Shown here: piece after piece, positions 19,887 through 22,356 of the stretch
Position numbering within the stretch: position 1 is the first letter of the stretch
How the letters are laid out: every line of letters begins with the position of its first letter
Assembly: GCA_049652925.1 (NCBI GenBank)
Contig: JBASFI010000012.1
Span: forward strand, 66,095-130,094
Direction of reading: 5' to 3'
Origin: Azonexus sp.
GTDB taxonomy: Bacteria; Pseudomonadota; Gammaproteobacteria; Burkholderiales; Rhodocyclaceae
Length of the DNA: 64,000 nucleotides
The notes under the pieces: generated by a model
Seen by the model: only the letters and a program-made list of their open reading frames with translations
Databases searched by the model: none
What the model was told of the DNA's origin: nothing
Position numbers and translations under genes: made by a program

Positions 19887-20536
19887 GGCAGTCCACTCAA
19901 TCCCAGCGAGGCCAGGCTGCCGAGGCCGGCATCGGCCGCCAGACGTTCCTTGCGCTGTTGATAAACCATATAAAGATGGCCGCCCTTGTCGTTGAAACCG
20001 AGGTCGCCAACGTGGAGGACTTTGAGACTCAGTGAGACCTTGGCGCGGATGGGGTTGAGCGCGCTGTCGAAAGCCTCTTCGGTAATCGAAAAATCGGTGA
20101 TACGCACCGGTACGACACGTTCCTTGCTCCACACGAAGAGGGTCAGCGGGGCCACCGTCGGGGCGATTTCCAGCGTGCCGAGGCTGAGCAGCGTGTTGTT
20201 CTGGATCAGCGTGTCGCTGTCCGGATAGACGATGGTTTCCAGCGCCGCCAGTTGCGGATGGATGCCGGAGGAAACCGTTTTCGGATGCTGATCGGGGAAT
20301 TCGAGTTGATCGGTGGCGTCGATTTCGGCTTCGAGCTTGAAGGTTTCGGTCGGCGGCCCTTTCAGGCGCAAGGGTTCGGAAAATGGTCCGCCCGATTCGG
20401 TGGCCTGCGCTTGCAGCGTTCGGGTCAGCGTTTCCGGGTTGTACTGCAGCGAAATGACCCGCTGCACGGCGCCGCTGGACGGGTCGATCAGGATCAGGCC
20501 GCCGCGCAGCAAGCCGGAGGAAAAGGGACCGCTCAT
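19883..20536 (-). CDS. second tube-family or tube-initiator-like protein
   Basis: 217 aa, starting MSGPFSSGLLRGGLILIDPSSGAVQRVISLQYNPETLTRTLQ... This is typical of CIS tube-like proteins encoded next to the LysM and hub genes. ATGA overlaps at both ends. Confidence 0.6.
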   Translation of the reverse strand: MSGPFSSGLLRGGLILIDPSSGAVQRVISLQYNPETLTRTLQAQATESGGPFSEPLRLKGPPTETFKLEAEIDATDQLEFPDQHPKTVSSGIHPQLAALETIVYPDSDTLIQNNTLLSLGTLEIAPTVAPLTLFVWSKERVVPVRITDFSITEEAFDSALNPIRAKVSLSLKVLHVGDLGFNDKGGHLYMVYQQRKERLAADAGLGSLASLGLSGLP

Positions 20537-22356
20537 TTGTTGAACCTCACGACTACGTCGTAATCCGCTTCGTCACGCGAGCGGGTGTTGCGGATGGCGC
20601 CGTAGGGCGGCTGCCAGAACATGTAGACGATCAGGTCGTCCTGATCGAAGAAGGTGCCGGTGTCCTCGTCATAGATCTGGACCGAGATAGGCCCGTTAAC
20701 CGGCATCAGGCTGGGCAGGGGCAGGGCAAAGCTGCCGGACTGGCCGTCATTGAGGCTCTTGACGGGGGTTTTGGCCTGTTTGCTGCCACTCTTGAGCAGG
20801 GCGTAGACCTCGTCGGCGCCGGTCCAGTCTTCGGTCTTTTTGACGTTGACATAGACAATCGTTTGGCGACCGGCCAGGGCCTGTTCGATGGCCCGCTTTT
20901 CGAGGGTTTTGGCGTTCCTGTCCACGTCTGTGGCAGTTGTCAGCGTGGAATTGACGGCACCGAGAGACACCAGCAATTCGCCGGTGCTGCGCTCCACGGC
21001 CGGCTTGTTGCTGGTCTCGGTGGCGCTGGTCGGCAGAGGCAGGTCGACGGTGTCCAGCGTCTTCTTGCTCTTCGGGTCTTTCACCGTTTTGGCGGCATTC
21101 CACTTTTTCGATGCGTCGACGAAGGCGCCGCTTGGCAGACCGGGCGAAATCAGTCGGATCGCCGGCGGAGTAACGGTCGCCGTTCCTGCGGCGTCGCACT
21201 TCCAGCCCCATTGCACCGAGCCGAGGTAGGTGTTGGCCATCGGGCCGGAAAGAACCAGCGCAGAGGTCTCGAAGTCCATCGCAATTTCCTGCTTGCTGAA
21301 GCTGATCGTGCTGGCCGGACTGTCCCACAGCGTGGCGTCTTTCACCTCGAAGCTGCCGTCGGGTTTCTTTTTCCGGAAGCCGTGTTCGCCGAACGTGGCC
21401 TTGCCGTAACCGGCGTCCGCGCCGGCGGTTTCGGGGTCCGGCACGCCTTCTGTCAGCGTCTTTGGAATCGCGCCTTGCTGGGCGTTCGTCGCGTAGAGCG
21501 GGCTGGTATTGGGTGCCGCCGTCTTCTTTCCTGTACCCATGTCGGTCTGGTCGATGTGGCGCCCTGGGTCGCTTTCGCCTTTTCCCAAGGAACGGGCCGC
21601 GACGTGTGCGGTGGGAGAGTTATCCTTGTCGATGGTGCCGCCCGCTTTCGTGTTCCTGAGGTTCCGCACAGTCTGGGTCGTCCCGATCAGATCGGCTTCG
21701 ACCAGCGTATTCGGCGTAAAGCGCAGTTTGATTTCGGCCCCCACCCGCTTGCCGACGGTACCGCCTTTCTTGGGCGGAACGTTGGTCGGGGCGTAAACGA
21801 CCGTGTCGAACTCTCCACCATTGGTTTTCACCGGGGCGCACCCAAGGCCGGGACGGAATGGGGAAATGGCGGGAATAGATTGGCCGCGCATGAATGCCAT
21901 AGCCGCCGAGTCGGCCTCCTGTTCGGCGCGCAGCGGCAGTATTCCTGGCAGGCTTCCGGATTCAGGGTCCAATGACCCTTGCTGTACCACATGCGCCAGT
22001 TCGTGCGCCAGCAAGCGCCGTCCGCCGACAGTGTCCGGCCGGTAGCGGTCGGCGGCAAAGCCGATGTCGTGGCCGATGGCGAAGGCGTCGGCGGCGAGAT
22101 ACGTCGCCTCCTGGCGGGCCGGCGCGTCGGCATGGATGCGGACGCGCGACAGATCGTGGCCGAAGAAGGGCTCGAACTCCTGGCGCAGCGCGGCTGGCAA
22201 GGGTTGGCCGCCGGAAAGGACGGGGGCTGGCACCGGGCGTCTGCTCAGCGACGCCTTGGCGGCTTGCAGCCCAGGGCGGGTCGGTGTGACGACGCCCTTG
22301 GCCGGGCTCTCGGGTGCCACGATGGGTGCCAGAATAGGACGGGCGAACTGGCTCAT
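20533..22356 (-). CDS. DUF4157 / HExxH domain protein, candidate eCIS cargo 1 (607 aa)
   Basis: True start is MSQFARPILAPIV at 22356 (ATGA overlap). The N-terminal region ...FEPFFGHDLSRVRIHADAPA...RRLLAHELAHVVQQG matches the DUF4157 pattern. The remaining roughly 480 aa are unrecognised. Confidence 0.75.
   Translation of the reverse strand: MSQFARPILAPIVAPESPAKGVVTPTRPGLQAAKASLSRRPVPAPVLSGGQPLPAALRQEFEPFFGHDLSRVRIHADAPARQEATYLAADAFAIGHDIGFAADRYRPDTVGGRRLLAHELAHVVQQGSLDPESGSLPGILPLRAEQEADSAAMAFMRGQSIPAISPFRPGLGCAPVKTNGGEFDTVVYAPTNVPPKKGGTVGKRVGAEIKLRFTPNTLVEADLIGTTQTVRNLRNTKAGGTIDKDNSPTAHVAARSLGKGESDPGRHIDQTDMGTGKKTAAPNTSPLYATNAQQGAIPKTLTEGVPDPETAGADAGYGKATFGEHGFRKKKPDGSFEVKDATLWDSPASTISFSKQEIAMDFETSALVLSGPMANTYLGSVQWGWKCDAAGTATVTPPAIRLISPGLPSGAFVDASKKWNAAKTVKDPKSKKTLDTVDLPLPTSATETSNKPAVERSTGELLVSLGAVNSTLTTATDVDRNAKTLEKRAIEQALAGRQTIVYVNVKKTEDWTGADEVYALLKSGSKQAKTPVKSLNDGQSGSFALPLPSLMPVNGPISVQIYDEDTGTFFDQDDLIVYMFWQPPYGAIRNTRSRDEADYDVVVRFNK

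Follow-up and report, generated by a model that had tools for sequence, protein, structure and literature searches.

Does the product of a gene in the middle of an extracellular contractile injection system (eCIS) cluster form part of the injection machine, or is it delivered by that machine and, if so, which of its domains might act on the recipient cell? This question is raised by a DUF4157 gene from Azonexus sp. which is located in a 64,000 nucleotide stretch of contig JBASFI010000012.1 (the whole of this stretch is referred to as the window). The gene codes for a protein of 607 residues, called the Azonexus protein in what follows. We consider it probable that this protein is a loaded cargo (effector) of the surrounding eCIS. 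It likely is a cargo of the DUF4157 class and not a structural or tape-measure protein. DUF4157-marked eCIS cargos are known as a kind. What appears to be new is the domain that follows DUF4157, which we named MID, the small partner genes that accompany MID in relatives, an alternative leader in front of MID, and a C2 domain as putative C-terminal anchor. No description of any of these was found in the family libraries and the literature searched.

The gene and its product

The gene is a minus-strand open reading frame (ORF) which starts with the ATG at 22356 and ends with the stop codon at 20535-20533; the protein has 64.5 kDa and an isoelectric point (pI) of 8.2. The start codon assignment is supported by a Shine-Dalgarno-like GGAGGG sequence 8 nt 5′ of the ATG, by the overlap of this ATG with the stop codon of the upstream gene (ATGA), and by homologues with 66-78% identity, which align over the full length from residue 1. 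A 1120-aa ORF listed at 20533..23895 does not represent the gene as the same frame merely stays open 5′ of the ATG; the local GC content is 62-66%, and such GC-rich DNA keeps the frame open upstream. Identity to homologues in Dechloromonas/Azonexus-type genomes ranges from 66 to 84%.

An AlphaFold2 model of the protein was built from an alignment of 91 sequences (mean predicted local distance difference test score (pLDDT) 84.9, predicted template modelling score (pTM) 0.74). It is composed of a disordered N-terminus, DUF4157, the beta-rich MID domain, a helical hairpin and a C-terminal beta-sandwich (see Table 1 for boundaries). In the initial annotation, about 480 residues following DUF4157 had been left unrecognised. 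It is correct that, outside of DUF4157, the protein has no match in Pfam (searched with sub-fragments, E≤5), NCBIfam, PHROGs or PDB sequences, but the region is not one unit and resolves into MID, the hairpin and a C2 domain.

Residues 1-42 are modelled with pLDDT values of only 29-34, and it is from these values and from the composition that the N-terminal region is predicted to be disordered. Among orthologues this region is variable save for a MSQ[FL]A.PV motif. It is followed by the domain PF13699, formerly DUF4157, which has the present Pfam name eCIS_core. Its match has 96.9 bits at a gathering threshold of 22 bits and covers model positions 1-76 of 79, so that DUF4157 is found where the initial annotation had placed it (residues 50-127, approximately). 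The structural alpha/beta unit spans about residues 50-156 of the model. The HELAH motif was also confirmed. H118, E119 and H122 from this zinc-binding-type motif, and in addition Q125, are invariant across the 91 aligned relatives.

MID, a widespread domain without annotation

MID is the name given here to a beta-rich domain of about 275 residues. When modelled alone by AlphaFold2, it attains a pLDDT of 88 and a pTM of 0.88. Conserved motifs are GGEFDT, IDQ, NPLYAT, FETSAL and TYLGSVxWGW, and 12 residues are invariant in the 91 sequences (G181, F213, Q228, D269, P286, D345, F362, E363, G371, G379, W383, and G384). The centre of the protein had been described as rich in Lys, Gly and Thr. The composition of residues 230-330 (14% Gly, 13% Ala, 12% Thr, 9% Lys) bears this out, and the model places these residues in a loop region within the folded domain, which is partly of lower confidence and varies in length among relatives.

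A MID profile derived from 16 sequences was searched against 1.84 billion cluster representatives (50% identity) and retrieved 1,191 of these at E≤1e-3, of which 838 remain with the stricter limit of E≤1e-10. Upon scanning species-representative genomes, MID was encountered in Proteobacteria, Cyanobacteria, Actinobacteria, Bacteroidota, Chloroflexota, Acidobacteriota, Gemmatimonadota, Myxococcota, Deinococcota, and in one archaeon, Methanoperedens. The profile has no match among PDB sequences, and MID is also without a match in Pfam and PHROGs. MID is a widespread, conserved domain which lacks annotation.

A structure search with MID (Foldseek) did not return anything significant. The best match from PDB has E=0.034 and that from BFVD has E=0.031, and the template modelling (TM) score is <0.3 in either case. 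We also considered an eqolisin-like Gln/Glu peptidase because of the invariant Q228 and E363 in a beta-sandwich, but dropped it as no such structure is among the Foldseek matches.

The C-terminal C2 domain

MID is connected to the C-terminal domain by the helical hairpin, which is kept in relatives (motif NK.FEKRALE). The C-terminus had been described as PLAT/C2-like, and a Foldseek search with the AlphaFold model had been proposed. When the full model was compared to PDB, the top matches were almost all C2 domains (E from 3.5e-5 to about 1e-3, TMt up to 0.61). Among these are 3w57, perforin (4y1s, 5ug7), C2B from Munc13-1, the C2 domain of cPLA2, C2A of dysferlin and a C2 domain from Trichomonas, with about 120-135 aligned columns. 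As the MID-only model yields no C2 match in the Foldseek PDB search, the C2 matches map, by elimination and size, to residues 498-606. PLAT was rejected since the significant fold matches are all to C2.

A C2 profile from 23 relatives, when compared to PDB sequences, matches best to the C2 domain of perforin-1 (E=0.0028) and next to that of synaptotagmin-7 (E=0.06), with D-x5-D-x-Y and D-x-D-x5-DD loops being paired in the alignment. We take the segments 508-518 and 562-574 to be the two Asp-rich Ca2+-binding loops of C2 domains. Their acidic positions are degenerate in about one third of the relatives but are intact in the Azonexus protein. With the single sequence of the Azonexus protein, there is no match to PF00168, the C2 family of Pfam, at E≤5. 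By its modelled fold, the C-terminal beta-sandwich is a C2 domain, and the profile comparison points to the same family. It shares with C2 domains of the perforin/synaptotagmin type the beta-sandwich fold (TMt 0.5-0.6) and, according to the profile alignment, seems to have acidic residues at both loops as well but, unlike these, it is from a bacterium and is part of a probable eCIS cargo. A C2 domain on an injected bacterial protein would be an unusual case of Ca2+/lipid binding and could indicate the site of action of the payload.

The surrounding eCIS cluster and its probable cargo

The gene is enclosed by a complete chromosomal eCIS cluster which extends over positions ~6387-32185 on the minus strand. 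The cluster codes for sheath, gp19 tube, Pvc16_N, an AAA+ ATPase with a winged-helix domain, CIS_tube, a DUF4280/PAAR-like protein, two Baseplate_J proteins and a DUF6519 protein (Table 1), and is flanked by chromosomal housekeeping genes for the type II topoisomerase B subunit and for PBP1A. Metagenome-assembled genomes of Dechloromonas, Azonexus and Ferribacterium are the nearest genomic relatives and show identical synteny. The gene is the second one downstream of the AAA+ ATPase gene, with another DUF4157 gene, designated 'A', in between. Translational coupling to structural genes on both sides had been noted in the initial annotation. ATGA overlaps indeed occur at both ends, but only the downstream neighbour (CIS_tube) is structural while the upstream gene codes for the cargo-like protein 'A'.

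Similarity between 'A' and the Azonexus protein is confined to the DUF4157 part (44% identity). The C-terminal part of 'A' (488 aa) is unrelated to the Azonexus protein, has no match in Pfam or PHROGs, and reads as mainly helical from its amino acid sequence. Protein 'A' is kept in nine relatives from the Rhodocyclaceae, but no counterpart was detected in those clusters of more distant origin that were examined. Probably, 'A' is another cargo of the system.

Two tandem DUF4157 proteins, Cgo1 and Cgo2, are known from AlgoCIS of Algoriphagus machipongonensis, where they occupy the lumen of the tube and are released when the particle contracts (PMC8894135). For loading of the AlgoCIS cargos, their disordered N-termini and the AAA+ protein are needed while DUF4157 is dispensable (bioRxiv 10.64898/2026.05.27.728243). 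The Azonexus protein likewise belongs to a tandem DUF4157 pair within an eCIS cluster that has a Pvc15-like AAA+ ATPase, and likewise consists of a disordered N-terminal region, DUF4157, and a folded C-terminal domain, the latter differing between the two proteins of the pair. This complete operon with its upstream Pvc15-like ATPase and the Cgo-type architecture support the cargo reading. By analogy to AlgoCIS, the N-terminal region is a candidate loading signal. There are also differences. The C-terminal domain of Cgo1 has a second HExxH motif while MID has none, and the C-terminal domains, as far as they can be set apart by description, appear unrelated. A C2 domain has been reported neither for Cgo1 nor for Cgo2. 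Packaging of Cgo1/Cgo2 was shown experimentally, while that of the Azonexus protein is a prediction. Three MID proteins with a length of 498 aa were checked for their origin and none is from Algoriphagus.

DUF4157 had been stated to be enriched among eCIS toxin genes, and is actually the strongest genomic marker of these (PMC8213781; PMC11297309). The Azonexus protein conforms to eCIS-associated toxins (EATs) by its N-terminal DUF4157, its unannotated C-terminal domain and its location in an eCIS operon. It differs from validated EATs, which have recognisable enzymatic domains such as deaminase, transglutaminase or nuclease, as MID lacks both an annotation and a relative by fold, and its gene is in mid-operon while EATs tend to be encoded at the 3′ end. 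An additional annotated domain is lacking from 983 of 1130 DUF4157 EATs (Danov 2024, PMC11297309), and the Azonexus protein gives a name and boundaries to one large group within these.

Table 1 Domains and motifs of the Azonexus protein, and genes of the eCIS cluster that encloses it. Positions refer to the window.
Feature	Residues	Position	Strand	Remarks
N-terminal region	1-49	22210..22356	-	rich in Pro/Ala/Ser/Arg (pI 12); disorder predicted; candidate signal for loading
DUF4157 / eCIS_core (PF13699)	52-127	21976..22203	-	E=7.9e-28
HELAH zinc-binding-type motif	118-122	21991..22005	-	
MID domain	170-445	21022..21849	-	beta-rich, five long strands of 12-14 residues
Helical hairpin linker	458-495	20872..20985	-	DSSP on the AlphaFold2 model: helices 458-474 and 480-495
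C2 domain	498-606	20539..20865	-	Foldseek and sequence profile
C2 loop 1, TEDWTGADEVY	508-518	20803..20835	-	aligns to perforin DATTATDAY; putative Ca2+ ligands D510, D515/E516
C2 loop 3, YDEDTGTFFDQDD	562-574	20635..20673	-	aligns to perforin WDADAGADDD; putative Ca2+ ligands D563, D565, D571/D573
Sheath		29903-32185	-	
gp19-type tube		29349-29873	-	
Zinc-ribbon protein, 247 aa		28584-29327	-	weak T4_baseplate match
Pro/Ala-rich protein, 267 aa		27773-28576	-	
Pvc16_N cap protein		26484-27842	-	
Pvc15-like AAA+ ATPase with winged-helix domain		24502-26487	-	PF00004, PF22977; presumed cargo loader (role from literature)
DUF4157 protein 'A', 635 aa		22353-24260	-	PF13699 at residues 71-147, E=6e-22
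Azonexus protein (DUF4157-MID-C2), 607 aa		20533-22356	-	
CIS_tube-family protein, 217 aa		19883-20536	-	PF19266, E=3.6e-7; ATGA overlap with the stop codon of the gene for the Azonexus protein
Smaller protein		19569-19898	-	
Smaller protein		18449-19576	-	
Smaller protein		17593-18330	-	weak, sub-threshold DUF4280 (PAAR-like) match
Baseplate_J protein		14779-17367	-	
Baseplate_J protein with PA14 domain		11660-14782	-	PA14 carbohydrate-binding-type domain, E=4e-27
712-aa protein		9525-11663	-	weak tail-protein match
DUF6519 protein		6387-9494	-	putative fibre gene

Architectures of MID proteins and alternative leaders

Ad hoc hidden Markov models (HMMs) were used to read the architectures of the collected MID proteins. 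MID is preceded by DUF4157 in 178 of the 199 N-complete proteins from a first sample. After this sample had been enlarged by a second homologue search, 74 of 308 N-complete proteins were found to be without DUF4157. More than two thirds of these (52 of 74) carry the N-terminal motif [LIVMF]Q[RKSG]..GN.[AT] ('LQRSAGNAAV'), which occurs in just 17 of the 234 proteins with DUF4157, and which has no matches elsewhere in these MID proteins. P0259, P0272, P0284, P0345 and L019:9077-10933 are examples of motif-bearing proteins that lack DUF4157. Judging from its position and distribution in the sequences, the motif possibly serves as an alternative leader for the eCIS or as a signal for loading. As MID occurs behind two alternative leaders, we regard it as a portable payload module. 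Two such leaders are relevant to the engineering of eCIS cargo loading, which is an active goal in biotechnology (bioRxiv 10.64898/2026.05.27.728243).

In the first sample, the tail that follows MID has a bimodal length distribution. It comprises about 50-100 aa in 109 proteins, while about 65 have a tail of about 150-200 aa, corresponding to hairpin plus C2. A C2-type tail was found in 72 of 250 sampled MID proteins. A few members of the family add cell-wall-binding domains (LysM or SH3_3).

In divergent eCIS clusters, MID genes directly follow the AAA ATPase gene. By HMMs of limited sensitivity, only 14 of 80 MID loci were found to have at least two eCIS core genes at a distance of up to 10 kb. 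Most members of the family are encoded outside eCIS clusters, as is the case for orphan effectors.

A small partner gene in relatives

Outside the Rhodocyclaceae, 53 of 71 genome loci have a small gene on the same strand directly 3′ of the MID gene. These partners belong to two unrelated families, DS1 (about 180 aa, 47 loci) and DS2 (about 137 aa, 6 loci), neither of which has a match in Pfam, PHROGs or PDB sequences. Examples are L081:11605-12219, L082:11296-11880, L083:11867-12316, and L084:11565-11999. The pair of MID and partner gene is found inside eCIS clusters (L081 from Pedobacter, L083, L024, L035, L044, and L049), with Pfam annotations for sheath, gp19, Pvc16, AAA, Phage_base_V and gp25 in the clusters of L081 and L083, and it is also found at orphan sites (L082, L084). 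About 20 of 55 partner ORFs start either with a signal anchor or with a hydrophobic stretch that ends in ..[GAS]C, which resembles a lipobox.

In these relatives, MID and its downstream partner look like an effector-immunity pair, judged by gene order and sequence features. Because the partner is downstream, is often exported, and switches between families, it may provide immunity to a toxin that acts on the envelope. The alternative that the partner is a loading chaperone is disfavoured since lipoprotein-type export signals are carried by about 20 of the 55. For the CIS/T6SS (type VI secretion system) of Halogeometricum borinquense, it has been reported that DUF4157 effectors are CIS-secreted, toxic, and neutralised by the product of the downstream gene (PMC11566945). 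This toxin-immunity gene layout is also that of the relatives of the Azonexus protein, but the Azonexus protein itself is without a downstream partner. When the MID sequence from Methanoperedens (archaeal) was used as a query, the relatives retrieved were all of bacterial type, and no MID member from Halogeometricum was among them. MID and the candidate immunity partner linked to it make up a putative effector-immunity system that is amenable to direct testing, and they may stand for a new mechanism of toxicity.

The Azonexus protein sides with the DS2-type branch, with its MID showing 37-46% identity to those of L010-L012, and over the whole protein it has 43% identity to P0040 (the gene from L083). 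In the window, the stop codon of its gene is part of an overlap with the start codon of the tube-family gene, and a partner is not encoded directly downstream.

The Methanoperedens (archaeal) contig has a DS1 partner with an N-terminal transmembrane anchor (L019:10934-11650). As the closest relatives of the Methanoperedens MID protein are bacterial, this suggests that the pair was transferred horizontally.

How the proposed cargo might act

The analysis has shown the domain composition, the assignment of folds, the place of the gene in the operon, the distribution of the family and, in relatives, the linkage to partner genes; loading, ejection, binding of Ca2+ and lipid, toxicity and the compartment that is attacked are inferences. 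From these data, a possible course of events can be outlined. The Azonexus protein would be made from the eCIS operon, with its translation coupled to that of its neighbours. The Pvc15-like AAA+ ATPase would recognise the disordered, basic N-terminal 40-50 residues for loading, and sheath contraction would expel the protein. The C2 domain would then bind, in a Ca2+-dependent manner, to membrane phospholipid of the attacked cell and hold MID and the DUF4157 module with its intact HExxH at the membrane or envelope, where MID would do harm, possibly together with the HExxH module.

The bacterial cell envelope or periplasm is favoured as target of the payload. This is based on the lipoprotein-type partners, the fusions to LysM and SH3_3, and two precedents. 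The C-terminal domain of VgrG2b, annotated as DUF4157, is an antibacterial toxin that acts in the periplasm, depends on HExxH and has an immunity protein (PMC6899460), and a Bacteroidales DUF4157 cargo is toxic only with a periplasmic tag (PMC12210884). Tentatively, MID may represent a new toxin fold of CIS effectors that acts on the bacterial envelope, is neutralised by two unrelated, mostly lipoprotein immunity families, and is delivered via two interchangeable leaders, either a disordered N-terminal region plus DUF4157 or 'LQRxxGNxA'. The branch of the Azonexus protein would have gained a perforin-like, Ca2+-dependent C2 anchor and, in the Rhodocyclaceae, would have lost the immunity partner.

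Several observations weigh against the proposed cargo and its course of action. MID has neither a recognisable catalytic motif nor a recognisable fold relative. An export signal is missing from more than half of the partners. A DS1 or DS2 homologue was found neither within the window nor in the nine closest genomic relatives, which weakens the reading as an antibacterial toxin for the clade of the window. The N-termini of the Azonexus protein and of 'A' have no convincing motif in common beyond M[KS]QF plus low complexity. Toxicity of Cgo1 in AlgoCIS is independent of HExxH, which makes a part of DUF4157 in the activity less certain (PMC8894135).

It is unlikely, though to be weighed next, that the DUF4157 module is the actual toxin. 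It would be zinc-peptidase-like and act in the periplasm in the manner of the C-terminal metallopeptidase of VgrG2b, with MID and C2 providing no more than substrate or membrane targeting. The two precedents given above fit to such a role, as do the invariant residues H118, E119 and H122 and the lipoprotein-type partners adjoining MID genes. On the other hand, nearly a quarter of the N-complete MID proteins (74 of 308) have no DUF4157, toxicity of Cgo1 and cargo loading in AlgoCIS do not depend on HExxH and DUF4157, respectively (PMC8894135; bioRxiv 10.64898/2026.05.27.728243), and the fusion of DUF4157 to many unrelated toxin domains suggests that its role is accessory (PMC8213781, PMC11297309).

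Even less probable is a membrane-damaging effector against eukaryotes, for which the perforin-like C2 would dock on Ca2+-exposed phospholipid while MID inserts or oligomerises as a pore, so that the producer needs no immunity. What keeps this reading alive for the clade of the window is the lack of a partner gene together with the C2 domain, for which perforin is among the best matches both by fold and by sequence profile. In addition, beta-pore-forming toxins (delta-toxin, NetF, LukGH, alpha-hemolysin, aerolysin, and Cry78Aa) are among the weak top Foldseek matches of MID, with probabilities of 0.01-0.07. The first of these, delta-toxin (2ygt), is matched with E=0.034, a probability of 0.07 and a TM score of 0.14. 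A pore-forming-toxin fold was rejected for MID since none of these matches is significant (E≥0.03, probability ≤0.07, TM<0.2). Also, MID residues 270-325 form a loop which is rich in Pro and neither alternating nor amphipathic, unlike an insertion hairpin. Other C2-bearing members (L011, L012, L015, L034, L048, and L083) have kept their partner genes, and it is only a minority of the sampled MID proteins (72 of 250) that have C2 at all.

It is very improbable that the protein serves the structure or assembly of the particle, be it as tape measure, as tube plug, or as adaptor of the baseplate or the tube initiator: the slot between the AAA ATPase gene and the tube-initiator gene is occupied by a DUF4157 tape-measure-related protein (Tme) in Streptomyces davawensis (PMC11126660), MID genes keep this slot in several divergent clusters, the tape-measure family PF19268 (CIS_TMP) has no match among the cluster genes in a Pfam scan, and Pfam now uses the name 'eCIS core', but the Azonexus protein has a strong DUF4157 HMM match without matching to CIS_TMP or a baseplate family, its model is compact, globular and beta-rich and has nothing of an extended ruler of the helical or disordered type, MID is found behind alternative leaders, most family members are orphan genes with a small partner away from eCIS core genes, and the cluster of Pedobacter contains CIS_TMP in addition to MID, as separate genes. 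While Tme and the Azonexus protein share the N-terminal DUF4157 and the slot upstream of the tube-initiator gene, Tme is far longer than 607 aa (its C-terminal domain is at 2030-2247), is about 70% disordered, and has transmembrane helices as well as TMP-like and nuclease regions (PMC11126660). We thus retain the assignment as a cargo, which is in line with the initial annotation.

Further observations on the cluster and its vicinity

Two genes of the cluster bear on the binding target of the particle, namely those coding for the PA14-bearing Baseplate_J protein and for DUF6519, the putative fibre. The 267-aa Pro/Ala-rich protein is kept in relatives, and no other gene product of the cluster is as obvious a candidate for determining the length or for another structural role that is still unassigned.

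In L009, which is from the chromosome of Dechloromonas sp. SSB2 (CP054864.1), the matches to Pvc16, DUF4157-A and Baseplate_J are split over several frames (locus coordinates ~4100-9500 and 14500-17100) while the orthologue of the Azonexus protein is intact. This suggests frameshifts from decay of the cluster, or assembly errors.

Just beyond the eCIS cluster, and adjoining the gene for the type II topoisomerase B subunit, the window has a minus-strand gene for an outer-membrane phospholipase A1 (777-2108; PF02253, E=7e-99), which shows a short N-terminal match to the VasI family of the T6SS.

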